Shown piece by piece: positions 1,659-13,755 of a DNA stretch of 14,772 nt. The notes beneath the pieces were generated by a model. That model had not been told where the DNA came from and made no database searches. It saw nothing but the letters and a program-made list of their open reading frames with translations. The first letter of the stretch is position 1, and every line of letters begins with the position of its first letter. Where the stretch lies: IMG/VR virus record IMGVR_UViG_2923323785_000003; one strand, written 5' to 3'. The DNA comes from a virus. Lineage: Duplodnaviria > Heunggongvirae > Uroviricota > Caudoviricetes. The translations under genes were made by a program, and so were the position numbers.

Positions 1659-4136
1659 TTAAGAATCAGCCTGACTCGGGATCAGTTTTTGCCAGATAAC
1701 TGAAACGTATTTTGCCTGGTAACGGGCGTCATCAAGTGCATTATGGCGCTCACCTTCGAATGGAATAGCCGTTCTGGGATCGAAGTCTATGGCTTTCCCC
1801 AGCTCAACGATTGTGCGTACATCGCGATCGTTGTAGTAACGCCACGGGCAGGGGATCCCCTGCCGTTCGTATGAACGGCGCAAAATCGTGTTGTCGAAGT
1901 TGGCTCCATTTCCCCAGACCTGAACAAAAAATTCACCGGAGTTTTCGTCGATAAATTCCCGCAATTGTAACAGTGCATCATCTAACGGGATTTCATCGGT
2001 CATAATGGCAGATTGCGCTTCGCGTGATTGCTTAAGCCACCATTTAATGGTGTCCCGATCAATGACTCCGCCAGCAGTTTCCAGATCGATAGTCTTACTA
2101 AATTCCGGTCCCATATCTCCGGTTTGCGGATCGAAAAATATTGCACCTATTGAGATGATCGGGGCATCAGGATTTTTTCCCATGGTTTCAAGGTCGATCA
2201 TTAGATGGTCACACGTCCTGCTGGTGGATGTGATTTCGTGATGACCGTTCACCTTAATTGAGTGATCTGCCGTCTCGCCAGTTTCATTATCGCTATTGTG
2301 ATGCTGATTGCCGCCAGTGTTCTCCTTGTGTGGATGTTCAGCGCCTTCCATTTCCTCCGGATCATCTTCCTGAACTTCAACCTGATACTCTTCATCGAAT
2401 GTTTCTTGGTATGTTGCGTCGCCCATCACCGCGCCACAATCAGGGCAGTTGCCGCCGCCGGTCTGACCGCAGGCGGTGCAGACTTTTTCCACTTCCTGTT
2501 GCGCCACTGGTTCAGGCTGTTTCGTTTCTGGCTCGTTTTGTAACGCATTTGGGCTGTTTTGTTCCGCTTTTTGGTAGTTCCGTTCCGATTCATGCTGGTT
2601 CTGGTTCACAGAATCGCGGGTCTGGATCCCCTTAACCCATTTCGGATCATTCGGGTCACTAATCCCTTCAACAAATTCACCACGTGATGCAGCAAGCAAC
2701 TTATCGGCGTCAGGCTGGCTGATATTGGCTGCCTGCATAATTTTGTTTACTTCGTCAGCGGTAACTTTTATCGGCTCTGGTTGTTCTGAATCTTCAGCGG
2801 TATCTACATTTTGCGGTAAGCCCGTGTATGTGCCATTTTTTCGGGCAAAATATTCTTCTTTTGTGATTTCAGTGGCGCCAGCAGCCAGTGCCTTATCCAG
2901 ACCAGAAAGTTTGTTTGCGCGACCGTATTTTTCTCCGTCCTTATCTGCGAAGAGGAAATAGAACGGCCCCTCACGCTCTACAGATGGTTCAGCTTCCGGC
3001 GCGGTTTCATTTTTTGGGATATCAGATACCTCAGTTTCCACTGCATCAGTTTGTGTTTCTGATGACTGGAGAACATCAACAGTGCCCAGGTCTGTTTCTT
3101 CATTCTCAAACACGCCCTTTGTCGTCAGGTATTCGCAGATATATTTGTTCAGTGCTACGGGATCTTTGTGAATGTCGATCGGACGCTCACGGACAAGGCC
3201 AAAAATAGTTTGGCGGTCGTAGCGAAGGGCATCAGGCTGTTTGCGCATTGATGCCGAGATACGCTTCCAGTCTTCGCGGTCGTTGTCGATAACTTCTTTT
3301 TTTGCCCAGCGATGGATGCTGCCGTCAATGTTTCCGGCATCCACATCACCAGGCCAGAGAGCGTAGGCCAGTTCGTCATCCAGTGTTTTCCATGTCTGCT
3401 TGTATTCGCGATGAATGGCAGCAATGACCGGGCTGATTTTTCCTGTTGAATTTTCAGTGTACTGTTGATTGGCTCTGGCTCTGGCGCGGGCGAGATCAAC
3501 AACAGACGTGTATTTTCCGGTTTCCTTGCGTTCACCTTCGCGACGTTTTTTCCAGATGCGCATCTCTGTCTGAATTTCGGGCCATTTAGCACCAGGAATA
3601 CATTTATGCTTAACCCACCCAATGGCGTGCAACTTAAGCTCCGGATACATGGCGTTAACTTCTGGCATTTTCATCAACGCTTCAACGATATGTCCGTCGA
3701 ATGTTGCCATGTCTTCCTGCAACAATTCCTGTGCGCTAATAACCATATCAACGGTGATGTTTTCACATGTGTCGAACTTAACCATGACAGCGTTCTGTAC
3801 TTCAGGGGCCAGCTTGTCAAAAGTGACGTTCATCGGATCGGATTCAGTCTCAACCGGGACAAAAGAAGCAGACTCCTCATCCCAGCGGTTTTCCTGCATA
3901 TATTCAGCATCCCATGAATCGAGGGCAGGGCGGGGTATGCCAGGTTTATCCTCGCAGATAATAAATTTATAAGCGCAGTCCTGAGCAGCCGGATAATGTT
4001 CCAGGAACTGCCAGTGAAATTTTGCTCGAGCACGGCGTTCGTCGCCAGCTTCAATGGCTGTGGCTACAGCCACCGCGCCTTCTCCCCTTGTTGCCAGTTC
4101 GTCAGGAATAGCGGCGCAAATAAAGACTTTACTCAT
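1659..4136 (-). CDS. Prophage exonuclease (RecE-like, often annotated exodeoxyribonuclease VIII) with C-terminal DEDDh (DnaQ-like) 3'-5' exonuclease domain
   Basis: 825-aa ORF. Last ~180 aa (nt ~1700-2210) carry DEDDh motifs: DLETMG (Exo I), NGANFD (Exo II), HNALDDARY (Exo III). Central Cys4 cluster CTAC...CPDC (nt ~2436-2480) followed by an acidic low-complexity linker. Segment LLAASRGEFVEGISDPNDPKWVKGIQTRD matches my recollection of Rac RecE. Lies between xis and the dicB-type operon. Confidence 0.85.
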   Translation of the reverse strand: MSKVFICAAIPDELATRGEGAVAVATAIEAGDERRARAKFHWQFLEHYPAAQDCAYKFIICEDKPGIPRPALDSWDAEYMQENRWDEESASFVPVETESDPMNVTFDKLAPEVQNAVMVKFDTCENITVDMVISAQELLQEDMATFDGHIVEALMKMPEVNAMYPELKLHAIGWVKHKCIPGAKWPEIQTEMRIWKKRREGERKETGKYTSVVDLARARARANQQYTENSTGKISPVIAAIHREYKQTWKTLDDELAYALWPGDVDAGNIDGSIHRWAKKEVIDNDREDWKRISASMRKQPDALRYDRQTIFGLVRERPIDIHKDPVALNKYICEYLTTKGVFENEETDLGTVDVLQSSETQTDAVETEVSDIPKNETAPEAEPSVEREGPFYFLFADKDGEKYGRANKLSGLDKALAAGATEITKEEYFARKNGTYTGLPQNVDTAEDSEQPEPIKVTADEVNKIMQAANISQPDADKLLAASRGEFVEGISDPNDPKWVKGIQTRDSVNQNQHESERNYQKAEQNSPNALQNEPETKQPEPVAQQEVEKVCTACGQTGGGNCPDCGAVMGDATYQETFDEEYQVEVQEDDPEEMEGAEHPHKENTGGNQHHNSDNETGETADHSIKVNGHHEITSTSRTCDHLMIDLETMGKNPDAPIISIGAIFFDPQTGDMGPEFSKTIDLETAGGVIDRDTIKWWLKQSREAQSAIMTDEIPLDDALLQLREFIDENSGEFFVQVWGNGANFDNTILRRSYERQGIPCPWRYYNDRDVRTIVELGKAIDFDPRTAIPFEGERHNALDDARYQAKYVSVIWQKLIPSQADS

Positions 4137-4229
4137 TTTGTTTGAACCTCATGACAGATTTAAGGATGAACAAATCCCTGCCATTGCTGGCATATAAGAA
4201 TGAAACCGGATATTTATTACGGAACTGTT

Positions 4230-4421
4230 TTAAAGACCTGCCGGGATTTCGATATTATCCTGGTGAATAACTTTATCGACCGGGTAACAGTTACCGGGAA
4301 TTTTCTGTTCGGTTGCTGCAGTCATACACTCCTGCATTGTCCTGTGAACACTGACTGCAATATCAACTGGCTCTCCGGAAACAAGAAAAACTGTCAGAAC
4401 AAGCGCAAATGCTGAATTCAT
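4230..4421 (-). CDS. ydfD: Small membrane protein, YdfD-like (63 aa; N-terminal hydrophobic helix)
   Basis: Internal Met of the 81-aa ORF with an AAGGA Shine-Dalgarno about 8 nt upstream. Its ATG overlaps the stop of the upstream gene (ATGA), suggesting translational coupling. N-terminus MNSAFALVLTVFLVSG is hydrophobic. Length and sequence match recalled Qin YdfD. Confidence 0.6.
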   Translation of the reverse strand: MNSAFALVLTVFLVSGEPVDIAVSVHRTMQECMTAATEQKIPGNCYPVDKVIHQDNIEIPAGL

Positions 4422-4606
4422 TGTGCACATCCTTTTGGCATCAGACGTAAACGAGCCAGCATTGAAACAATGCATATTTTATTTAATAGCTCCCGTTCTT
4501 GTTTTCTCTTGTTAATGGCATCTTCAGTAAATACAGGGTTACTGATAGTGACACCAATTTCAAAACAACCTTCAGACGTATTAACGTTTGGTAATAACGT
4601 TTTCAT
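4418..4606 (-). CDS. dicB: Cell-division inhibitor DicB (62 aa)
   Basis: Internal Met of the 97-aa ORF with a GAGGA Shine-Dalgarno 7 nt upstream. Sequence MKTLLPNVNTSEGCFEIGVTISNPVF... matches recalled E. coli DicB. Lies immediately downstream of the DicF sRNA, as in the Qin dicB operon. Confidence 0.75.
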   Translation of the reverse strand: MKTLLPNVNTSEGCFEIGVTISNPVFTEDAINKRKQERELLNKICIVSMLARLRLMPKGCAQ

Positions 4607-4780
4607 TATCGCGTCCTCAACAATGAATTTTGTGATGCAGTGCCTGGTGCCTCCAGGTGACGTTAACCAGTTAACAATTAACGCCGGATACAGAGAATCC
4701 ACCCATAACACTGTTTTTGGTTTTAACTGTTCCGCGTGCGCTTCGCCGCATTCACCGCATCACAAGATTCACTTTAAAAA

Positions 4781-4833
4781 CGGCGGCAGAGCAGTCACGG
4801 AGTAAAACTGATACCGCCAAACGTCACCAGAAA
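4781..4833 (-). ncRNA. dicF: DicF small regulatory RNA (ftsZ-targeting sRNA of the dicB operon)
   Basis: Reverse complement of 4781-4833 reads TTTCTGGTGACGTTTGGCGGTATCAGTTTTACTCCGTGACTGCTCTGCCGCCG followed by a T5 run, which matches my recollection of the 53-nt DicF sequence and its terminator. Sits just upstream of dicB on the same strand. Confidence 0.75.
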
Positions 4834-5092
4834 ATTGATAACAGAGGGCGTTGCAGCGGGGTTGTCACTTAAGCGTATGGTCAACCTGACAACTCGGTGT
4901 CCTCAACGGGGAAGGAATAACCCCGCCATACTTACCGCCGCGCCATTTCGCGGATTGCCACAACCGGAAGCGCACGGTCGAATTAAATTTACCGACACCG
5001 TACAGTTAGACGAATTTCGCCGTGCGCTTTCGTGTTGTGTGCCTGCTTTTAACCACGTCAGGCGAGGTGGTATCCTTAAAATCACCACAGTT

Positions 5093-5668
5093 TTAAGGAT
5101 TCATTAAGCAATGTCGCAACCACCAATAAATCCGCTTAAGAACATGAAAATTGATTACTGGTATAAAGAGCTTACAGTTGTTGGCGCTGCGTTGTTTGTC
5201 TTTAATGGAACGTCTTTTTTTGACAGATATCCCGTTGTTCCATTGGGTTTTTTGTCCTCCGGCATCTTTTTTATTGGTTTGGGGGAGTGGATTAATCACC
5301 CTCTCAAAGTGAGATTTATTGGTCCTGGGGTTTGGACTCGTGGATATAATCGTTCTTCGTGCGCACTCGGCATCATCTTCGACATACTTGGTTGTTTCCT
5401 GATTATTACAGGAGTCGTCAAGTTCTTCTGATGTAAAACCGCAAATGGGGCACGTAACGGGAATTTTGAAAAGCGTTTCTCCGGGTTCCAGAACAAAATT
5501 TTCTGCGGTCTGATTTTGCTTCTCATATTTGTGCTCCGCGTCATTGTGAGAGCACATTCTTATTCTGAGTGCCTGTTTAAACTCACTGAAGCTGAGAGCT
5601 TCTTCGCCTTCGGCAAGGCCTTCGAAGTATTCTTCGTAAGCCTTTTCCATGATTGTGTCGAAATCCAT
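5093..5668 (-). CDS. Acidic small protein with CxxC zinc-ribbon-like motif (YdfB-like N-terminus); C-terminal extent uncertain
   Basis: Start MDFDTIMEKAYEEYF at 5668 with a GGTGA Shine-Dalgarno-like sequence; one nt after the stop of the upstream gene. First ~85 aa look protein-like (acidic, CPICGF motif). The remaining ~105 aa are low-complexity and lie exactly antisense to a plus-strand membrane-like ORF, so they may be an antisense shadow. Confidence 0.45.
   Translation of the reverse strand: MDFDTIMEKAYEEYFEGLAEGEEALSFSEFKQALRIRMCSHNDAEHKYEKQNQTAENFVLEPGETLFKIPVTCPICGFTSEELDDSCNNQETTKYVEDDAECARRTIISTSPNPRTNKSHFERVINPLPQTNKKDAGGQKTQWNNGISVKKRRSIKDKQRSANNCKLFIPVINFHVLKRIYWWLRHCLMNP
5111..5431 (+). 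CDS. Putative small inner-membrane protein (3 predicted TM helices), encoded antisense within the leftward operon; alternative to the 3' half of the 5093-5668 ORF
   Basis: 106-aa ORF with three hydrophobic segments (LTVVGAALFVF, VVPLGFLSSGIFFIGLG, CALGIIFDILGCFLIITGVV). Weak ribosome-binding site. Position and opposite orientation resemble sieB in the Rac prophage. Confidence 0.3.
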   Translation: MSQPPINPLKNMKIDYWYKELTVVGAALFVFNGTSFFDRYPVVPLGFLSSGIFFIGLGEWINHPLKVRFIGPGVWTRGYNRSSCALGIIFDILGCFLIITGVVKFF

Positions 5669-5669
5669 A

Positions 5670-5825
5670 TCACTCACCTGAGTTTCTTTCCAGCCAGCGA
5701 CGGGCACCATTTTCGGTTTTAAACGTTTTGCTTTTGGTATACGTCATCGCGGTGAACGTGCCGTCCTGGTTGGGGAACACGCCACATACCAGAGATTCGC
5801 TGTTGCCAAGATCGATAGTATCCAT
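5670..5825 (-). CDS. ydfA: Small protein YdfA-like (51 aa), first gene of the leftward operon
   Basis: Internal Met of the 69-aa ORF with a GAGGT Shine-Dalgarno 5 nt upstream. The 51-aa length and position right downstream of the repressor gene match YdfA (Qin) and YdaF (Rac). Confidence 0.6.
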   Translation of the reverse strand: MDTIDLGNSESLVCGVFPNQDGTFTAMTYTKSKTFKTENGARRWLERNSGE

Positions 5826-5905
5826 GCTGACCTCATTTCCCCTTAACGCCGGGGTAGCGGAACTGTTTGCTGAGAACACCGTGCGGTGTCTTGATGGAAA
5901 TTAAT

Positions 5906-5955
5906 TTAGAATAATCTAACATGATAGGCAAGTGTTTTTTGTTAGGTTAGTCTAA
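5906..5955. promoter_or_regulatory. Left operator/promoter region: two TTAG-N6-CTAA inverted-repeat operator-like sites (5906-5919, 5942-5955) upstream of the leftward dicB-type operon
   Basis: Sequences TTAGaataatCTAAC and TTAGgttagtCTAAC, each a 4-bp inverted repeat with a 6-bp spacer, in the intergenic region between the repressor gene and ydfA-like. The same motif recurs twice in the dicA-dicC intergenic region. A candidate leftward sigma70 promoter (TTGCCT, 17 nt, TAAATT on the minus strand) overlaps site 1. Confidence 0.5.
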
Positions 5956-5993
5956 CAAAAAGAGTGAGCGCAACTAATCACTTGAAAAGAATG

Positions 5994-6401
5994 TTATTTT
6001 ATTGATTTATTTTTACGCGCTTTAAGCATTTCTTCGAAGAGTTTGTTGAAGTTTTCTACTCTTGCGCGCATTTCAGACAGCAAGGCTTCCTGCTCGGAAG
6101 ATGGAAGAGCATCGAATAATTCGATCAATTCTTTGTGGTTGGGAGTTAGCTCTGTTTCCACATGAAGTTCTTGTGCAGGCACTGGTGCCTTGTCTTCATC
6201 ACCAAACATTAGCCATGTAGGTGAGCACTTCAGAGCATCCGCTAAAGCAAACAATCGTTTTCCGACTGGCTGGGTTTCGTCTCTTTCCCATTGTGAAATT
6301 GTGACGTGAGCAACTCCAGCGAGGCGCGCAGCTTCTCGTTGTGTTAAGCGTAATTCTTTTCGTCGCGCCAGAACTCGCTGGCCTAGGGTTCTTGTATCCA
6401 T
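5994..6401 (-). CDS. dicA: DicA-like HTH (XRE-family) prophage repressor, cI analogue without a peptidase domain
   Basis: 135-aa ORF with an N-terminal helix-turn-helix (LTQREAARLAGVAHVTISQWERDE). C-terminal ...SPTWLMFGDEDK...ELIELFDALPSSEQ...EMRARVENFNKLFEEMLKAR closely matches recalled DicA, which is also 135 aa. Divergent from a DicC-like gene. Confidence 0.9.
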   Translation of the reverse strand: MDTRTLGQRVLARRKELRLTQREAARLAGVAHVTISQWERDETQPVGKRLFALADALKCSPTWLMFGDEDKAPVPAQELHVETELTPNHKELIELFDALPSSEQEALLSEMRARVENFNKLFEEMLKARKNKSIK

Positions 6402-6403
6402 AG

Positions 6404-6466
6404 TTAGGTAATTCTAATTTTTCTTGACTTAGGTATCCCGCGCACAATAATGTTAGAAAAGTCTAA
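6404..6466. promoter_or_regulatory. Right operator/promoter region between divergent dicA-like and dicC-like genes: two TTAG-N6-CTAA sites (6404-6417, 6453-6466) flanking a rightward sigma70 promoter (-35 TTGACT 6424-6429, -10 AATAAT 6446-6451)
   Basis: Same inverted-repeat motif as the left operators (TTAGgtaattCTAA, TTAGaaaagtCTAAC). Promoter hexamers are near consensus with a 16-nt spacer. DicC start at 6479 is preceded by GAGGGGG. Confidence 0.55.
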
Positions 6467-6478
6467 CAAGAGGGGGCT

Positions 6479-6709
6479 TTGATGCTTAAAGTTGACGCAA
6501 TTACTTTTTTTGGCAGCAAAACAAAGCTTGCCAATGCCGCAGGAGTGAGACTGGCAAGTGTTGCTGCTTGGGGGATACTGGTTCCTGAAGGTCGCGCGAT
6601 GCGTCTACAGGAGGCATCTGGCGGGGAGCTTCAGTATGATCCCAAAGTTTATGACGAATATCGTAAGACGAAGCGGACGGGGCGGTTGAACAATGAAAAT
6701 CACTCCTGA
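6479..6709 (+). CDS. dicC: DicC-like transcriptional regulator (Cro analogue)
   Basis: 76-aa ORF divergent from the repressor gene. Segment VPEGRAMRLQEASGGELQYDPKVYDEYRKTKR matches recalled DicC; same length as DicC. Confidence 0.8.
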   Translation: MMLKVDAITFFGSKTKLANAAGVRLASVAAWGILVPEGRAMRLQEASGGELQYDPKVYDEYRKTKRTGRLNNENHS

Positions 6710-6986
6710 ACAGGCTCGTGAGGCTCTGGATGCCTGGATATGTCGACCAGGAATGACACAGGAGCAGGCGACGATATTAATCACTGAAGCATTCTGGGCT
6801 TTGAAAGAGCGCCCGAACATCGATGTTCAGCGTGTCACATATGAAGGTGGCGCGGTTGATCAGCGAGCGCTTAGCGTTAATCGAGTGAAGATATTCGAAC
6901 GCTGGAAGGCTATCGACACCAGGGATAAGCGTGAAAAGTTCACAGCGCTAGTGCCTGCAATTATGGAGGCTACCGTCACTGGATAA
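6693..6986 (+). CDS. Hypothetical early-region protein (YdfX-like position)
   Basis: 97-aa ORF overlapping the dicC stop by 17 nt (operon-like), with protein-like composition. No recognised catalytic motif. Confidence 0.55.
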   Translation: MKITPEQAREALDAWICRPGMTQEQATILITEAFWALKERPNIDVQRVTYEGGAVDQRALSVNRVKIFERWKAIDTRDKREKFTALVPAIMEATVTG

Positions 6987-7061
6987 TCTCAGTCAGATTG
7001 CCTTACTCCGAACGCCCACCGCGTCCGTCCCGTACATTCCAGCAACGCATCTGGAGGTAAC

Positions 7062-7541
7062 GTGCGGGTATTACTTCGACCTGTTCTGGTACCGGAACTC
7101 GGGCTGGTGGTCGTTAAGCCGGGCCGTGAATCCATGCCGGTATTCCACAATACCCGGGTACTGGTGGAGCCGGAACCGAAAAGCATGCGTAATCTGCCGT
7201 CCGGGATCGTTCCTGCCGTTCGCCAGCCGCTGGTGGAAGACAAAACATTGCTGCCGTTTTTCAGTAATGCACGGGTAATTCGTGCTGCTGGTGGTGCTGG
7301 TGCATTGTCTGACTGGCTGTTGCGCCATATTAAATCCTGCCAGTGGCCACACGGCGATTATCATCACAGCGAAACCGTTATTCACCGTTATGGTACCGGC
7401 GCAATGGTGTTGTGCTGGCACTGCGACAACCAGCTGCGTGACCAGACATCCGAATCACTCGAGCAACTTGCTCATCAAAACCTGTCAGCATGGATGATTG
7501 ACGTCATCGGTCACGCAATAATCTTTCATGAAACGACCTAA
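7062..7541 (+). CDS. Hypothetical protein, possibly the C-terminal part of a DUF968/YdfU-like protein (GTG start)
   Basis: 159-aa ORF starting at a GTG with a GGAGG Shine-Dalgarno at 7054-7058. Preceded by a 75-bp non-coding gap where replication genes would be expected. Family assignment is tentative. Confidence 0.45.
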   Translation: MRVLLRPVLVPELGLVVVKPGRESMPVFHNTRVLVEPEPKSMRNLPSGIVPAVRQPLVEDKTLLPFFSNARVIRAAGGAGALSDWLLRHIKSCQWPHGDYHHSETVIHRYGTGAMVLCWHCDNQLRDQTSESLEQLAHQNLSAWMIDVIGHAIIFHETT

Positions 7542-7818
7542 ACGTCGCCGCTGGGTTAACGAGAAATACACTCGCTGGGTGAAGACACAGCCGTGTGCGT
7601 GTTGTGGTAAGCCAGCCGACGATCCCCATCACCTGATTGGTCATGGTCAGGGCGGAATGGGGACAAAATCTCACGATATTTTCACGCTACCGCTGTGTCG
7701 GGAGCATCACAACGAGCTTCATGCGGATCCGCTGGCGTTCGAAGAAAAGCATGGTTCTCAGGTTGATTTAATTTTTCGTTTTCTTGATCACGCCTTTGCA
7801 ACTGGCGTGCTTGGGTAA
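7528..7818 (+). CDS. Small Cys/His-rich putative zinc-binding HNH-like protein
   Basis: 96-aa ORF with CACCG...HH...LCREHHNELH motif pattern. Its start overlaps the stop region of the upstream ORF in a different frame. Confidence 0.55.
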   Translation: MKRPKRRRWVNEKYTRWVKTQPCACCGKPADDPHHLIGHGQGGMGTKSHDIFTLPLCREHHNELHADPLAFEEKHGSQVDLIFRFLDHAFATGVLG

Positions 7819-7830
7819 AAGAGGTGACTG

Positions 7831-8205
7831 ATGCTCATAGATTTGGTTTTACCTTACCCGCCGACGGTGAACACTTACTGGCGACGCCGTGGCAGCACAT
7901 ATTTTATCTCGGAGGAGGGAAAGCGTTATCGCCGGGCTGTGGCGCTTATTGTTCGCCAGCAGCGGCTGAAATTAAGCCTGTCCGGAAGGCTGGCGATAAA
8001 GGTGATTGCAGAGCCACCGGATAAGCGTCGTCGCGACCTGGACAATATCCTGAAAGCACCGCTGGATGCGCTGACGCATGCGGGAGTGTTAATGGACGAT
8101 GAGCAGTTTGATGAAATCAATATCGTTCGTGGTCAGCCAGTATCTGGTGGACGTCTGGGGGTGAAGATTTACCCCATAATGCATGAAGAGCAGGTCAAAA
8201 AATGA
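7831..8205 (+). CDS. rusA: RusA-family Holliday-junction resolvase
   Basis: 124-aa ORF with LPYPPTVNTYWR N-terminus and the RRRDLDNILKAPLDALTHAGVLMDDEQ motif typical of RusA (recalled E. coli RusA has RRRDLDN...KA.FDALTKAG...DD). GAGGTG Shine-Dalgarno upstream. Position before Q is typical. Confidence 0.85.
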   Translation: MLIDLVLPYPPTVNTYWRRRGSTYFISEEGKRYRRAVALIVRQQRLKLSLSGRLAIKVIAEPPDKRRRDLDNILKAPLDALTHAGVLMDDEQFDEINIVRGQPVSGGRLGVKIYPIMHEEQVKK

Positions 8206-9023
8206 AACTGGAAGATTTACCGAAATACTACTCCCCAAAATCCCCTTGCCTGACCGATGCATCGGCCTCAACGTCAAAAGATGCGCTGAGTATCACTGAT
8301 GTGATGGCCGCGCAGGGCATGACACAGAATCGGGCTGAGATGGGGTTTTCTGCGTTCCTGGGGAAAATGGGCATCAGTATGAATGACAGGGCGCGGGCAA
8401 CAGAATTACTGGCAGATTATGCACTCAGTCGGTGCGATCGTGTGGCGGCGTTGAGAAAACTTCCGGCAGAAATAAAACCGGTAGTGATGCGCATTATGGC
8501 TTCGTACGCTTTTGAGGATTATGCCCGCAGCGCAGCGAGTAAAAAGCAGTGCCCTTGTTGCTATGGGGAAAAATTTATTGAAAGCGTAGTTTTTACAAAC
8601 AAGGTCCAGTATCCGGATGGTAAGCCGCCGGTATGGGCAAAGTGTACGAAAGGTGTGTATCCGTCTTACTGGGAAGAATGGAAAAAAGTCAGGGAGGTGG
8701 TAAAAGTTGCCTGTCCGGAGTGTGGCGGAAAGGGTGAGGTTTCCACCGCCTGTAAGGATTGCCGTGGGCGTGGTGTCGCCATTCACCGTGAAGAGTCGGT
8801 AAAACGTGGTATGCCTGTTATCAGAGACTGCCAGCGTTGTGGTGGTCGTGGCTATGAAAGACTACCATCAACGGAGGCATTTAATGCTATATGCGAGGTG
8901 ACAAACCAGATAACACGCGCGTCATGGGAAAAAACAGTTAAGAAATTCTATGATGCGCTGGTGACCCGGTTTGATATTGAAGAAGCATGGGCTGAGCGGC
9001 AGTTAAAAAAGGTAACTAGGTAA
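8202..9023 (+). CDS. Late-gene antiterminator Q (QuuQ-like, with Cys-rich zinc-finger repeats)
   Basis: 273-aa ORF whose ATG overlaps the rusA stop (ATGA). Repeated CxxCxGxG-type motifs (CPECGGKG, CKDCRGRG, CQRCGGRG). Immediately followed by a candidate late promoter and intrinsic terminator, then tRNAs and lysis genes. Confidence 0.7.
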   Translation: MKLEDLPKYYSPKSPCLTDASASTSKDALSITDVMAAQGMTQNRAEMGFSAFLGKMGISMNDRARATELLADYALSRCDRVAALRKLPAEIKPVVMRIMASYAFEDYARSAASKKQCPCCYGEKFIESVVFTNKVQYPDGKPPVWAKCTKGVYPSYWEEWKKVREVVKVACPECGGKGEVSTACKDCRGRGVAIHREESVKRGMPVIRDCQRCGGRGYERLPSTEAFNAICEVTNQITRASWEKTVKKFYDALVTRFDIEEAWAERQLKKVTR

Positions 9024-9028
9024 CAAGG

Positions 9029-9056
9029 TTGATTTTTCCGGAATCTGTGGTAAATT
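9029..9056 (+). promoter_or_regulatory. Candidate late promoter (pR'-like) downstream of Q
   Basis: -35 TTGATT (9029-9034), 16-nt spacer, -10 TAAATT (9051-9056), followed about 50 nt later by an intrinsic terminator, as in lambda pR'/tR'. Confidence 0.4.
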
Positions 9057-9104
9057 CGTCATAACGATGGGCTTTTTATGCCTGACGTTAGAAGAGTTTC
9101 TACA

Positions 9105-9129
9105 ACCCGCCGCCGAGCGGGTTTTTTAT
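9105..9129 (+). terminator. Intrinsic terminator (tR'-like) read through under Q antitermination
   Basis: Stem ACCCGC / GCGGGT with 6-nt loop, followed by TTTTTTATT. Confidence 0.6.
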
Positions 9130-9166
9130 TGCGGAATTAATTACGGACCGTTATTATTCTGCTCAC

Positions 9167-9242
9167 GGCCCTTTAGCTCAGTGGTGAGAGCGAGCGACTC
9201 ATAATCGCCAGGTCGCTGGTTCAAATCCAGCAAGGGCCACCA
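9167..9242 (+). tRNA. tRNA with CAU anticodon, Ile2-type (ileX/ileZ-like; tRNA-Met cannot be excluded)
   Basis: 76 nt. 7-bp acceptor stem GGCCCTT/AAGGGCC, D-arm GCTCAGTGGTGAGAGC, anticodon loop CTCATAA, T-arm GCTGGTTCAAATCCAGC, 3' ACCA. Close to recalled E. coli ileX. Confidence 0.85.
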
Positions 9243-9342
9243 TCACAAACCGCCATTAGCTTATCAGGAAGAGCAGACGACGCGATAACAGGGTTGTTGG
9301 TGCGGGGGCGGGTCCCCGATGGCGGTCCATTATCGGTATTCA

Positions 9343-9419
9343 GCGTTGTTAGCTCAGCCGGACAGAGCAATTGCCTTCTAAGCAATCGGTCACTGGTTCG
9401 AATCCAGTACAGCGCGCCA
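9343..9419 (+). tRNA. tRNA-Arg (anticodon UCU, reads AGA/AGG)
   Basis: 77 nt. Acceptor stem GCGTTGT/ACAGCGC (one G-U pair), D-arm GCTCAGCCGGACAGAGC, anticodon stem ATTGC/GCAAT with loop CTTCTAA, T-arm ACTGGTTCGAATCCAGT, 3' GCCA. Confidence 0.85.
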
Positions 9420-9529
9420 TATTCATTCTTCCAGATTCCTTCCGGCAGAGCCTTATACTGAAATATACCTGGCTCAGGATCTTGTTGAAAATATTATATG
9501 TTTGTCAAAAATAAAAGTTCTGTCAAGTA

Positions 9530-9883
9530 TTGATTGAGTGTTTGTTATACCGTCTAATGGTTTTTTCAGCATTAAATATTTATCATTCATATGGTGTGGG
9601 TAGAGTGAATATTGATGAGGCGTCGGGGTGTTTCATCCTTAGGCAGCGTATTGATATAGTCAATGCAGCACGAGCAAAGGCCTTCAGCCGTTTGACAGTT
9701 TTGTTTTGTACTCCTGATCGTCTTTCGGGAAGAGACGTTATTATTCTGAATAGTGATGCTATACAGAGGGTTTGCGATGAGTTCATGGTTGCTAATTCAG
9801 AATTATTTGCTCTTGTTCAGGAGTACAACAGAATAGCCAGGACCTGTGGTATGGATGAACTTCGGATTACTCATCTGGGGTAG
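9530..9883 (+). CDS. Hypothetical protein (cargo ORF downstream of the tRNAs); start uncertain (TTG at 9530 or ATG at 9557)
   Basis: 117-aa ORF. C-terminal half looks protein-like; no convincing Shine-Dalgarno; no family recognised. Confidence 0.3.
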   Translation: MIECLLYRLMVFSALNIYHSYGVGRVNIDEASGCFILRQRIDIVNAARAKAFSRLTVLFCTPDRLSGRDVIILNSDAIQRVCDEFMVANSELFALVQEYNRIARTCGMDELRITHLG

Positions 9884-10357
9884 ATACATATCTGGATTAT
9901 CACCTGTTACGGTAAAAAGTTATTGCTTACTGTTTTTGTGAATGGCATTGCAGCAGCCGGATAATGTCAGTGCTGGCTGACGGTGTGCTGGTGGCGGGTG
10001 TGGTGGTTATTGCTTTCCCGTTGCTGAAAAAGAAAACGCCGGACTGTTAGCCGGGTATCAGTTAGCGGGAGAAATTTTTAAATACTTCACAATTCAGGCG
10101 GTTGACTGTTGTCTGGTTTGCGGGGAGTTTGTTAAAAGAAACTGGCATGGTGAATCCCCCTGTGCGGAGGGGCAATCAGCGAGTAGGTATATGGGATAAT
10201 CGCGGATTCAGGTGCTGGTACTGAATTCACCGGGAGGCACCCGGCACCATGCACTTCAATAGATTCTCTCCACATTATGGATATTCTTTCAGAATATCCC
10301 ACGCAGACTTTGTGTAAATGTTAACAAATGTGCGTTTTATTTGATCTGATTCGCTGT

Positions 10358-10387
10358 TTGAGCGTCCAAAACAACGGTATATATAAT
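10358..10387 (+). promoter_or_regulatory. Candidate sigma70 promoter for the first lipoprotein gene
   Basis: -35 TTGAGC (10358-10363), 17-18 nt spacer, -10 TATAAT (10382-10387), about 30 nt upstream of the start at 10417. Confidence 0.4.
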
Positions 10388-10416
10388 CCTTTACTATATG
10401 ACATATGTGAGGAAAA

Positions 10417-10845
10417 ATGGGTTTTCGTAGCGCATCAATTCTTACGTTGATTATTAGTGGGATTATTATCGGGTGCACTGATGCTGTATCGACAAATTAT
10501 CATGACCGTACATCATATTACTCCGATAAAGCAATAGAGACACAGTATGTGAGTTCATCTGAACGTACTTCTGATGTTAGTGAGGATATCCGTCTGTATG
10601 CCCATCAAATCAAGAGCGCCATCGAAAAACAGTTCGGGGATGCGAGTAAGTATTCAGGAAAAGAGTGTACACTGAGAATGCATATGGCCCCGAATGGCCT
10701 TCTACTGGAGGTTAAAAGAGAAAGTGGAGACCTCGATTTATGTCGTGAAGCGATGAATGCGATAAAGAATGCTGATATACCTGCCCCCCCTTCGCCGGAA
10801 GTATATAAAGTATTTCAAAATGGGGTGCTGGATTTTAAACCCTGA
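10417..10845 (+). CDS. Lipoprotein with C-terminal TolA domain-III-like domain
   Basis: 142-aa ORF with GAGGA Shine-Dalgarno. Lipoprotein signal peptide with lipobox IIGC. C-terminal ~87 aa (IRLYAHQIKSAIEKQFGDASKYSGKECTLRMHMAPNGLLLEVK...LCREAMNAIKNADIPAPPSPEVYKVFQNGVLDFKP) align with my recollection of the E. coli TolA C-terminus (...YAGQIKSAIESKFYDASSYAGKTCTLRIKLAPDGMLLDIK...LCQAALAAAKLAKIPKPPSQAVYEVFKNAPLDFKP). Confidence 0.85.
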   Translation: MGFRSASILTLIISGIIIGCTDAVSTNYHDRTSYYSDKAIETQYVSSSERTSDVSEDIRLYAHQIKSAIEKQFGDASKYSGKECTLRMHMAPNGLLLEVKRESGDLDLCREAMNAIKNADIPAPPSPEVYKVFQNGVLDFKP

Positions 10846-10995
10846 TATTTATTGTTTTGTAATAAACGGTTTCGGCTTAGGTTTGTTCTGACACAACTAC
10901 GGCACTGAGCTAAATTTAGCGGATAGTCAGCTCTGAGCCAGTGGCGGACGTAACAACTACTATTGCTGAGATTTTAATGGATTGAGGAGCAAGAA

Positions 10996-11391
10996 GTGGG
11001 ATTAAAGAAAATCGTTATGTTGACTTTTTGGGTCGGTTTTGTTGCGGGATGCACACCTTTACACCCTTCAGATTGCCACAAAACTACTGCTACAGGTAGT
11101 TGCAGTTCAGGACGCTGGGATGATCAGGATGAATGGGGGGCGCAAGCGCGGGGAATCAGAGCTGCAATTAATGCCAAACTTGATGAGCCGCATAACTGGA
11201 AAGGGAAAAAATGCAGGTTGCATATGGAATTCTCTCAGGATGGCACGGCGTTAAAAATATCTACCAGTAACGGTGATAAAGCCTATTGCGAAGCGATAAA
11301 GTCCGCAGCTCATAAAGCCAAATTTCCGGCCTTCAACAATCCGGAAGTCTACAGAGATTTTCAGAAATCTGGCTTTGACATGCGAGGTTAG
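10996..11391 (+). CDS. Second lipoprotein, diverged paralogue with TolA domain-III-like C-terminus (GTG start)
   Basis: 131-aa ORF starting at GTG with a GAGGAG Shine-Dalgarno 6 nt upstream. Signal peptide with lipobox VAGC. C-terminal region (KGKKCRLHMEFSQDGTALKI...YCEAIKSAAHKAKFPAFNNPEVYRDFQKSGFD) shares the two-Cys spacing and PEVY..FQ motif with the upstream paralogue. Confidence 0.8.
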   Translation: MGLKKIVMLTFWVGFVAGCTPLHPSDCHKTTATGSCSSGRWDDQDEWGAQARGIRAAINAKLDEPHNWKGKKCRLHMEFSQDGTALKISTSNGDKAYCEAIKSAAHKAKFPAFNNPEVYRDFQKSGFDMRG

Positions 11392-11516
11392 CTCTTCAAT
11401 TACTATATCTCATTCATAGCAAACTGACAGATTTGATGATGTTCTATATACGAAACCTGTGATGTCAAGTCTGAGCTAATACAAATAAACATAATATCAG
11501 AGAAATACATTTTATT

Positions 11517-11543
11517 AGCTCGCTACGGCGAGCTTTTTATATT
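11517..11543 (+). terminator. Intrinsic terminator closing the lipoprotein transcription unit
   Basis: Stem AGCTCGC / GCGAGCT with loop TACG, followed by TTTTTATATT. Confidence 0.65.
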
Positions 11544-11642
11544 GCATCGTCTCCAGCATATATATCAATTATGGCTCTGATTGATGTGTCTGGAAGCCTA
11601 CACATAATAACTATGCCATCCGTTCCGTGCGGAGGTGAGGCT

Positions 11643-11858
11643 ATGAAATCCATGGACAAAATTTCAACAGGCATTGCCTACGGCACCTCCGCAGGCAGTG
11701 CTGGCTACTGGTTTTTACAGCTGCTCGATAAAGTCACGCCCTCACAGTGGGCAGCAATAGGTGTGCTGGGTAGCCTGGTATTTGGCCTGCTGACGTACCT
11801 GACAAACCTTTATTTCAAGATTAAAGAAGACAAGCGTAAGGCTGCACGGGGAGAGTAA
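11643..11858 (+). CDS. Class II holin / pinholin of the S21 / EssQ / EssD type, with dual-start motif (MKSM)
   Basis: 71 aa from the ATG at 11643, preceded by GGAGGTGAGG. Sequence [71 protein letters not shown] closely matches recalled phage 21 S21 and E. coli EssD/EssQ holins. Confidence 0.85.
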
Positions 11859-11862
11859 TTCA

Positions 11863-12177
11863 ATGACTCAAAAATATGAACTGATTGTGAAAGGGATCCG
11901 CAATTTTGAGAATAAAGTTACGGTAACTTTAGCGTTACGGGACAAAAAACGCTTTGACGGTGAAATTTTTGACCTGGACATCTCGCTGGACCGTGTTGAA
12001 GGTGCCGCGCTGGAGTTTTATGAGTCAGCAGCCAGAAGGAGCATCAGACAGGTCTTCCTGGATGTTGCTGCCGGGTTATGTGAAGGGGACGAGCTGTTGC
12101 CAGAAACGCGCCCCTGTTCAGAGGCGCGGTATACCATAAAAATTAACAGTTCTGATAACTCGATTACGGGTTGTTAG
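11863..12177 (+). CDS. YdfR-like small protein (DUF1327-type) that follows the holin in Qin-like prophages
   Basis: 104-aa ORF 4 nt after the holin stop. Length and position match ydfR, which lies between essQ and the endolysin in Qin. Sequence identity is not confirmed. Confidence 0.55.
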   Translation: MTQKYELIVKGIRNFENKVTVTLALRDKKRFDGEIFDLDISLDRVEGAALEFYESAARRSIRQVFLDVAAGLCEGDELLPETRPCSEARYTIKINSSDNSITGC

Positions 12178-12232
12178 CTTTTTGCAGTTGGCTTTCCGGT
12201 ATCTTTCATTGGTAGCATCCTGATAAATATCC

Positions 12233-13174
12233 ATGAGCGCAAAAATCAAATACGCCCTGTCAGCTGCTGTTCTGGCGCTGATTGCTGCAGGCGCGTCTGC
12301 TCCTCAGATACTTGACCAGTTTCTGGACGAAAAAGAGGGTACCGGAGTCGGAAGTTGCCGGACCTTGCAGATGAAGGCGCATTACAGAAATGGTGGTCTG
12401 TTCTACCGTTCTTCAAGAGACGGTTATGGTTTTGAGGAAGACTGGGCAGAAGTTTATACCTCGAAAAATCTTCCACCAGAAAGCTACCCAGTCGGCGCAC
12501 CAATCCCGTGGCCATCAGATACCGTTCCGTCTGGTTATGCCCTGATGCAGGGGCAGACTTTTGACAAATCTGCCTACCCGAAACTTGCAGCCGCTTATCC
12601 GTCAGGCGTGATCCCTGATATGCGTGGCTGGACGATTAAGGGCAAGCCCGCCAGTGGTCGTGCCGTATTGTCTCAGGAACAGGACGGCATAAAATCGCAT
12701 ACCCACAGCGCCAGCGCATCCAGTACTGATTTGGGGACGAAAACCACATCGTCGTTTGATTACGGCACTAAATCCACGAATAACACTGGTGCGCATACCC
12801 ATAGTTTAAGTGGCAGCACGAATGCAGCTGGTAATCACAGCCATAGAGATGGCCGTCGATTTAACCCCAGTGTTTTTAAAGATACTTATCAATATGGTTA
12901 TACAAGCTCAGGTCAAAATACCTGGGGTGTGCAAGGCTCAGTAGGTATGTCTACGGGGGCGTTAGCTAATACCAGTACAGATGGTAACCATAGCCACTCA
13001 CTGTCCGGCACAGCAGCATCTGCAGGTGCACACGCACATACTGTCGGTATTGGTGCACACACGCACTCCGTTGCGATTGGTTCACATGGACACACCATCA
13101 CCGTTAACGCTGCTGGTAACGCGGAAAACACCGTCAAAAACATCGCATTTAACTATATTGTGAGGCTTGCATAA
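12233..13174 (+). CDS. stf: Side tail fibre protein, C-terminal receptor-binding portion (lambda orf-314 / StfQ-like; N-terminally truncated relative to full-length Stf)
   Basis: 313-aa ORF with [50 protein letters not shown] and repeated HxH motifs (HTHS, NHSH, HAHT, HGHT) typical of lambda/T4-type fibre tips. Stop overlaps the tfa start (TAATG). No Shine-Dalgarno, and it sits directly after ydfR-like, consistent with a deletion remnant. Confidence 0.8.
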
Positions 13175-13755
13175 TGGCATTCAGAATGAGTGAACAACCA
13201 CGGACCATAAAAATTTATAATCTGCTGGCCGGAACTAATGAATTTATTGGTGAAGGTGACGCATATATTCCGCCTCATACAGGTCTGCCAGCAAACAGTA
13301 CCGATATTGCACCGCCAGATATTCCGGCTGGCTTTGTGGCTGTTTTCAACAGTGATGAGGCATCGTGGCATCTCGTTGAAGATCATCGGGGAAAAACCGT
13401 CTATGACGTGGCTTCCGCCGACGCGTTATTTATTTCTGAACTTGGCTCGTTACCGGAAAATGTCACCTGGTTATCGCCGGAAGGAGAATATCAGAAGTGG
13501 AACGGCACAGCCTGGGTGAAGGATACGGAAGCAGAAAAACTATTCCGGATCCGGGAGGCGGAAGAAACAAAAAACAGCCTGATGCAGGCAGCGAATGAGC
13601 ATATTGCGCCACTTCAGGATGCTGTAGATCTGGAAATCGCAACGGAGGAAGAAAACTCGTTGCTGGAAGCCTGGAAAAAGTATCGGGTGTTGCTGAACCG
13701 TGTTAATACAACAACTGCACCGGATATTGAATGGCCAGTAGCACCTATAGGGTAA
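13174..13755 (+). CDS. tfa: Tail fibre assembly protein Tfa (lambda Tfa / TfaQ-like)
   Basis: 193-aa ORF. N-terminus [39 protein letters not shown] and C-terminus [24 protein letters not shown] closely match recalled lambda Tfa. Confidence 0.92.

Follow-up and report, generated by a model that had tools for sequence, protein, structure and literature searches.

The TolA-like cassette

The viral record IMGVR_UViG_2923323785_000003 of IMG/VR is a stretch of 14,772 nucleotides, here called the window, whose sequence is found unchanged in Escherichia coli O27:H7 strain B4103-1 (NZ_CP024245.1), as a decayed prophage that occupies the Qin site between rspB and ydfZ. Between the gene for the late antiterminator Q and a holin gene it carries a cassette of two adjacent genes on the plus strand, which we call A and B, each encoding a small lipoprotein whose C-terminal part is homologous to domain III of TolA (TolAIII). 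Unless they dock on this domain, group A colicins, related bacteriocins and g3p, the tip protein of filamentous phages, are not pulled in by the TolQR motor. The prophage has lost its replication, lysis, morphogenesis and head genes, A and B are both intact in it, and the active temperate phage mEp460_ev081 shares the segment 10300-11560 with it at 100% identity. A sequence-only reading of the window, made without database searches, had placed two adjacent lipobox genes (IIGC, VAGC) at this site, and both reading frames and both signals are found there.

Gene A (10417-10845) starts with ATG behind a GAGGA ribosome-binding site and encodes 142 residues. The signal peptide, residues 1-19 (MGFRSASILTLIISGIIIG), ends in the lipobox IIG/C at the predicted lipid cysteine Cys20 (10474-10476), which is followed by threonine at position +2. 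A disordered linker (residues 21-53) leads to the TolAIII-like domain, residues 54-142 (10576-10842). The sequence-only reading had identified this domain by eye, and the profile search bears it out: the Pfam family PF06519 (TolA_C) matches A with 82.6 bits (E 2e-23; gathering cut-off 25 bits), and residues 55-142 align without a gap with residues 334-421 of E. coli TolA (E 5e-28, phmmer against the Protein Data Bank, PDB), 52 of the 88 residues (59%) being identical. In the AlphaFold model of A the N-terminal 50 residues are disordered and the C-terminal domain has a predicted local distance difference test (pLDDT) score of about 90; Foldseek superposes it on 2x9a_B with a root-mean-square deviation (rmsd) of 0.6 Å and a template-modelling (TM) score of 0.96.

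Gene B (10996-11391) has a GTG start behind a GAGGAG site and encodes 131 residues; its start codon is backed by plasmid orthologues, which have ATG at the identical codon position. The signal peptide, residues 1-18 (MGLKKIVMLTFWVGFVAG), runs up to the lipobox VAG/C with the predicted lipid cysteine Cys19 (11050-11052), again with threonine at +2. The TolAIII-like domain of B, residues 46-131 (11131-11388), scores 54.6 bits against PF06519 (E 1.3e-14) and aligns with residues 341-419 of TolA (E 5e-9, phmmer against PDB), with 27 of 81 residues (33%) identical when B is compared with TolA 341-421. The AlphaFold model of B has a C-terminal domain with a pLDDT of about 90 behind 41 disordered residues, and Foldseek superposes it on 3qdp with an rmsd of 1.1 Å and a TM score of 0.92. 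Both signal peptides have a positively charged n-region and a hydrophobic core, with a mean hydropathy of the h-region of 2.4 in A and 2.1 in B; both models show the alpha-beta-beta-alpha-beta fold of TolAIII, and the disulfide cysteines (C363-C388 in TolA) are kept in both.

A and B bear TolA's C-terminal domain and yet are not TolA: they lie outside a tol-pal operon, fall below the cut-off of the TolA equivalog model NF007065 and lack domains I and II. Neither the inner-membrane helix that couples TolA to TolQR (domain I) nor the long helical part (domain II) was found in A or B. Against NF007065 (cut-off 213) A scores 107.8 and B 53.7, and of the 387 positions of the profile only about 95 (A) or 80 (B), at its end, are matched. 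The model TIGR02794 (cut-off 59.45) is passed by A with 75.6, through its C-terminal domain alone, and failed by B with 47.2.

The two proteins differ in what lies between the lipid anchor and the domain. The sequence-only reading had given both a short linker, which holds for the disordered stretch of A; the corresponding part of B is constrained like a domain. Residues 20-48 of mature B (11053-11139), TPLHPSDCHKTTATGSCSSGRWDDQDEWG, form a conserved N-terminal module with two extra cysteines, which is near-invariant across genera, including the motif CHKTTATGSCSSGRWDDQDEW. Over the 29 residues past the lipid cysteine the ratio of nonsynonymous to synonymous substitution rates (dN/dS) is 0.01-0.10, as low as in the folded domain; AlphaFold2 has low confidence over the module and gives no confident structure for it. 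For the whole of B the ratio is 0.08-0.12 against plasmid and chromosomal copies, and B is under strong purifying selection. For A it is 0.36 overall, 0.24 in the domain and 0.59 in the linker.

B had also been called a diverged paralogue of A. The two are indeed homologous, with 29% identity, but B belongs to a separate mobile lineage. An origin of B by tandem duplication of A was rejected, B being 88% identical to plasmid copies and 29% identical to A; the two are independently mobile lineages set side by side. Among copies of B, DNA homology spans the gene from about 30 nucleotides 5' of its start codon as far as the stop codon, and what moves is therefore just the gene and its ribosome-binding site.

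Transcription signals

The sequence 5' of gene A contains a sigma-70 promoter-like site on the plus strand (10358-10387), TTGAGC and TATAAT separated by 18 nucleotides, which is a pattern match and the top-scoring one in the region 8900-12300, with 10 of the 12 consensus positions; sites scoring at least 9 of 12 are not rare there (10 found, 6.8 expected). Judging from this consensus match, the cassette would be expressed in the lysogen. The spacer between A and B was examined for an internal terminator or other structure, and none was found (z = -0.4). The cassette is closed before the holin by an intrinsic terminator on the plus strand (11517-11543), with a 7-bp GC-rich stem, a 4-nucleotide loop and a U tract: the hairpin at 11517-11534 has a folding energy of -13 kcal/mol (z = -4.4) and is followed by UUUUUAUAUU, in agreement with the strong terminator that the sequence-only reading had noted at this position.

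Distribution on mobile elements

The cassette is present in 775 of 5426 complete E. coli genomes, about one in seven, and 785 E. coli records match it with at least 99% identity. Of the 50,697 phage genomes on deposit, a single one has the genes. Among the viral contigs of IMG/VR, 35 have A followed by B, with the holin next wherever the contig reaches that far, 23 have a variant of A alone and 18 a variant of B alone. One contig of the last kind (2080-6116) has its B variant beside an interrupted terminase gene, a resolvase fragment and homologues of umuD and umuC; this region is a prophage edge by the chromosomal btuE gene.

B orthologues with 88% identity occur on about 600 plasmids of E. 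coli and Shigella, of the IncK/Z and pO157 types. On pO157 the orthologue follows psiB-psiA-hok, and on all three of the IncI-type (MPF_I) conjugative plasmids inspected it lies 68 nucleotides 3' of a nikB-type relaxase gene; by typing, two of these are IncK2/Z plasmids and one is a multi-replicon IncF plasmid. In the extracted plasmid loci the B orthologue occupies 5965-6396 (L099 and L100), 6965-7396 (L013) and 5815-6246 (L003). The plasmid copies are possibly co-transcribed with transfer genes. Single chromosomal copies of B, with 78-89% identity, are found in Enterobacter, Citrobacter, Serratia, Raoultella and Klebsiella. In Serratia marcescens the orthologue stands directly 5' of genes for GmrSD-family and HEPN-domain proteins (locus 8001-10736), a neighbourhood that resembles a defence island.

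A full HMMER scan of 1.84 billion representative proteins returned 587 clusters at E <= 0.001. Among the best 150 of these, 80 encode proteins of 100-170 residues, and at least 57 of the 80 have the build of a lipobox plus the domain; a few short representatives bear plain Sec signals in place of the lipobox. The lipobox-TolAIII architecture is thus a general one. In the viral structures of BFVD no TolAIII fold was found at E <= 0.001, and the Pfam and PHROG matches of A and B are limited to the TolA_C/TonB_C families and PHROG 5772.

The breadth of the family bears on one further explanation, that phages picked up fragments of tolA which persist as non-functional debris. The annotation pipeline PGAP does label A of B4103-1 as an incomplete tolA lacking its N-terminus, that is, a pseudogene. 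But both reading frames are intact, with canonical lipoprotein signals and ribosome-binding sites, purifying selection is strong, and neither the number of near-identical E. coli records nor the recurrence of one build among the short representatives is what debris would leave; we give this explanation hardly any probability, and a tolA pseudogene was rejected on the selection and architecture data. PGAP also starts B at Met8, by which the signal peptide is lost, and A goes under the name 'cell envelope integrity protein TolA' in other genomes. Whether through the name TolA, the pseudogene label or a start past the signal peptide, each such annotation conceals that the product is a lipoprotein.

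A related arrangement is found on a 10,060-bp cloacin plasmid of the ColRNAI type (CP043367.1) that is common in clinical Klebsiella. Three co-oriented genes on its minus strand (5641-6893), an apparent operon by adjacency and orientation, encode an 81-residue basic protein, a TolAIII lipoprotein and a Sec-exported TonB C-terminal domain, and they are divergent from the cloacin, immunity and lysis genes. The TolAIII lipoprotein has the lipobox LTA/C, is 49% identical to TolA and has the docking strand LDFRP. A search for SOS control of the three genes found a single LexA box, which belongs to the cloacin promoter. With A as the query, tblastn matched 660 Klebsiella plasmid records, including small cloacin plasmids and larger conjugative ones. 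Tol is the entry hub for group A bacteriocins as Ton is for group B, and docking domains of both TolA and TonB, uncoupled from their motors and carried on a bacteriocin plasmid, can hardly be accounted for by anything but interference with import. A survey of Klebsiella bacteriocins lists 'TolA/TolB family proteins' on one cloacin plasmid, uncommented. When the plasmid's TonB-like protein was compared with the defence-system models of PADLOC, it gave a weak match to AbiEi (E 0.048).

Docking surfaces and a possible decoy function

The binding of ligands to TolAIII has been mapped in published work. The g3p-N1 domain, colicin N and the N-terminus of TolB all dock by beta-strand addition to strand beta3 of TolA (A415-K420), where backbone hydrogen bonds of D418 and K420 are essential, and colicin A docks on the other side (L375-P380), where K368, K379 and K396 make cation-pi contacts (PMC4339652, PMC3365938, PMC7391070). 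Strand beta3 of A, LDFKP, is that of TolA (L417-D418-F419-K420-P421) without a change, and its colicin A edge is mostly kept, K368H and P380R being the exceptions. We think that A would be a close decoy for ligands that bind beta3.

We propose, with about even confidence, that A and B are decoys which, tethered to the outer membrane, trap those segments of group A bacteriocins and of filamentous-phage g3p that bind TolA. Both proteins would be exported and lipid-modified, and because residue +2 is threonine and not aspartate, the '+2 rule' of E. coli predicts their sorting to the outer membrane, on its inner face. A free TolAIII would sit there on a flexible tether, about 30 residues long, just below the porins and pilus entry sites. 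Translocation domains and g3p would meet it as soon as they emerge, before the TolA that reaches across from the inner membrane. The tethered copy would capture the TolA-binding segments first, in a complex that would be a dead end because the decoy has no coupling to TolQR, and the carrier cell would gain a broad tolerance. The invaders' ligands bind TolAIII with an affinity of about 1 uM and TolB with one of 40-200 uM (PMC4339652, PMC3365938, PMC7391070), so a modest dose of decoy could trap invaders while Tol-Pal is little affected.

The decoy idea is strengthened by the plasmid, cloacin-plasmid and Serratia contexts and by the intact genes in the decayed prophage. Purifying selection on B and on the domain of A, and the frequency of the cassette in E. 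coli, speak for it too. That both genes are retained where functions for replication, lysis and morphogenesis are gone fits a decoy, as does carriage on conjugative plasmids, whose piliated hosts are targets of filamentous phages; Ff and IF1, at least, dock on TolAIII (PDB 1TOL, 2X9A). The docking step can moreover be blocked from the ligand side, as periplasmic g3p-N1 sequesters TolA and confers colicin A resistance and a 4-log fall in phage uptake (PMC10424213).

The same plasmid carriage could be claimed for another benefit to the host, off the ligands of Tol altogether, such as serum resistance or adhesion in the manner of Bor and Lom, or a part in conjugation such as entry exclusion, with the TolA-like fold as a mere scaffold. 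Lambdoid morons near lysis genes are known to include outer-membrane virulence proteins, and B lies inside the transfer regions of conjugative plasmids. A and B, however, have no similarity to the Bor, Lom, Cor, Llp or TraT families in Pfam or PHROG, and the exact ligand strand of A, together with that of the Klebsiella homologue, argues that TolA binding is what has been retained. We regard a function of this kind as rather improbable.

Several findings weigh against the decoy proposal. In A, K368 is replaced by histidine, and in TolA this lysine pairs with the essential Tyr58 of colicin A. Strand beta3 of B reads FDMRG and keeps just the aspartate and one basic residue, and the residues of its colicin A site are charge-reversed. 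The promoter with which the sequence-only reading had credited the cassette does match the consensus but is a mere pattern, and 5' of the allelic variants of A, where it was sought, it is absent and the upstream regions are unrelated. Moreover, the cassette lies within a late operon, and a high level of expression on induction may have a different role. PADLOC-DB 2.0, searched with E values up to 1, has no match for A, B or the Klebsiella TolA-like lipoprotein; the assigned PHROG 5772 is listed with function unknown; and the literature searched held no functional study of, and no experiment on, proteins of this type. A possible cost has to be counted too, as free periplasmic TolAIII reportedly also makes cells leaky. 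Finally, the constrained N-terminal module of B is unexplained by a simple decoy model. B probably has another range of ligands, possibly through this module, and a description as tandem decoys may fit A better than B, because both known ligand edges of B are changed and its linker is constrained like a domain.

The module invites the idea that B is a bivalent trap for TolB, with the N-terminal module (with GSCSSGRWDDQDEWG) bound like a colicin TolB box to the TolB beta-propeller and the TolAIII domain bound to the TolB N-terminus. B would then block colicins that depend on TolB (E2-E9, A, K), leaving to A the ligands that bind TolA directly. The near-invariance of the module across genera and its domain-like constraint suit such a role; we take the module to resemble the TolB box of colicin E9, DGSGWSSENNPWG, and the aspartate and basic residue of B stand at the two beta3 positions that matter. 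Yet the spacing of the two tryptophans is off by one from the colicin E9 box, a phmmer search of PDB with the module gave nothing significant, and AlphaFold2 confidence in it is low. We hold the bivalent trap to be very unlikely.

Beyond the window, we suggest more tentatively, and with somewhat less than even confidence, that mobile elements of the Enterobacterales carry widespread, unrecognised 'import-hub decoys': lipid-tethered or secreted TolAIII domains, and on cloacin plasmids also a TonB C-terminal domain, which would catch bacteriocins and pilus-specific filamentous phages while still in the periplasm, short of the energised Tol and Ton systems. Two such decoys with different ligand ranges would here be stacked in the slot of stx. 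If this is true, import-hub decoys would offer a tolerance of wide range, not tied to a single toxin, as a third route beside immunity proteins and loss of receptors. An element that copies the periplasmic docking hub of its host, where others mask a surface receptor or neutralise a toxin, would represent a new principle of entry exclusion. Such decoys would be a common, overlooked determinant of survival in the colicin and klebicin warfare of the gut, with a bearing on engineered bacteriocins, colicin-lysin fusions and filamentous-phage vectors when these meet natural isolates.

Comparison with known systems

The sequence-only reading knew of no characterised system of this type. The literature searched agrees, yet the homology of the domain already stands in public NCBI annotation, and what is new is the inferred function and the breadth of the family. 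In the literature on mEp460 the phage is named as a BLAST label only, and in a preprint on anti-defence genes of plasmid leading regions TolA goes unmentioned.

The closest relative is TolAIII of E. coli itself (residues of about 334-421; PDB 1TOL, 1S62, 2X9A, 3QDP/3QDR), with which A and B share the fold, homologous sequence and the disulfide, and A also an identical strand beta3. In contrast to TolA, they have no inner-membrane anchor, no domain II and no link to TolQR, carry a lipoprotein signal, and are found on mobile elements outside the tol-pal operon. A second parallel is the engineered periplasmic TolAIII of Levengood-Freyermuth, Click and Webster (1993), likewise an extra, motor-uncoupled TolAIII in the periplasm, which reportedly gave colicin tolerance. 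That construct was reportedly soluble, overproduced and a cause of leakiness, whereas A and B are natural, diverged and under selection, and are predicted to be lipid-tethered at the outer membrane.

Exclusion by g3p blocks the same docking of g3p and colicins on TolAIII by titration (PMC10424213). There the invader's ligand saturates the host's hub, with tol phenotypes as the consequence, whereas A and B would saturate the invader's ligand and leave the host's TolA free. The Llp protein of T5 and the Cor proteins of phi80, N15 and HK022 are also small outer-membrane lipoproteins of phages that bar competitors, and they too are moron-like and are expressed early or from the prophage. They bind and plug the receptor FhuA, whereas A and B would mimic a periplasmic co-receptor; the analogy is one of function only, and no kinship of A or B to Llp or Cor was found in the Pfam and PHROG profiles.

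Colicin immunity proteins would be a parallel in so far as the decoy proposal holds, since the decoys would likewise protect against bacteriocins and can lie on a plasmid beside a bacteriocin operon. Immunity proteins neutralise one cognate toxin domain, however, whereas a hub decoy would be broad and act at import, and there is no homology. With the stxAB and nanS-p cargo of lambdoid phages the cassette shares its position between Q and the holin, rare-codon tRNA genes upstream, and Q-dependent late read-through with a possible promoter of its own; the proteins are unrelated, A and B being envelope lipoproteins and not a toxin.

The Q-to-holin slot

That the cassette occupies the toxin slot, as the sequence-only reading had it, is confirmed by the order of features from Q on, which is Q, a terminator, two tRNA genes, a match to the STnc100 family of small RNAs, A, B and the holin gene. 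The gene for Q lies at 8202-9023 (plus strand), the terminator after it at 9104-9123 and the holin gene, of EssD type, at 11643-11858 (plus strand), directly 3' of the cassette. The content of this slot varies among relatives. In phages with an A allele of 66% identity the order is Q, A, a nanS-type esterase gene, DUF1378, DUF826, holin, lysozyme and Rz; this is the layout of Stx phages, with A in the place of stxAB. The GC content of the cassette is 41.5%, compared with 49.5% in both Q and the holin gene.

By what is known of lambdoid phages, transcripts modified by Q would run through the cassette into the lysis genes, and this position is the starting point for another explanation. A and B could be modulators of the host's own Tol-Pal system, a tethered TolAIII binding the TolB N-terminus (or CpoB) in competition with genuine TolA, so that the envelope is loosened and more vesicles form, or the breakdown of the outer membrane and release at lysis are helped; tolerance would then be a side effect. 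The strand of A that would bind TolB is identical to that of TolA (PMC4339652), proline mutants in beta3 of TolA that do not bind TolB show the full tol phenotype, and a review suggests that vesicle output could be regulated through interactions of TolB (PMC7391070). A place in the Q-dependent late transcript just 5' of the holin implies, besides, strong expression at induction. The weak affinity between TolA and TolB, 40-200 uM, would nonetheless demand much protein (PMC4339652, PMC7391070), plasmids and chromosomes carry B by itself, away from any lysis genes, the cassette has stayed intact in a remnant that is unable to lyse, and a terminator stands between cassette and holin. Modulation of Tol-Pal as the main function we therefore consider unlikely, if the least unlikely of the alternatives to the decoy proposal, and the two functions may coexist.

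Other features of the window

The two tRNA genes between Q and the cassette (9167-9419, plus strand) comprise one with a CAT anticodon (9167-9242), which ARAGORN calls tRNA-Met and PGAP tRNA-Ile, and one for tRNA-Arg with anticodon TCT (9343-9419). In Stx phages, tRNA genes occupy the same position, between Q and stx. The STnc100 match (Rfam; 10116-10306, plus strand) scores 114 bits against a gathering score of 47, and stops about 50 nucleotides 5' of the promoter-like site of gene A.

Upstream of the slot the window runs from integrase through excisionase, exonuclease, dicB/DicF, repressor, cro and rusA to Q. The antisense small RNA DicF, a marker of Qin-type prophages, lies beside dicB on the minus strand (4781-4832). 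Decay is visible in a truncated ydaT and a frameshifted DUF968 gene (about 6700-7550), and downstream, where the holin is followed by a DUF1327 gene, in a lysozyme stub fused to tail-fibre fragments (12233-13174). Within the tail-fibre assembly gene there is also a match to the Rfam family IS009 (13517-13715, plus strand).

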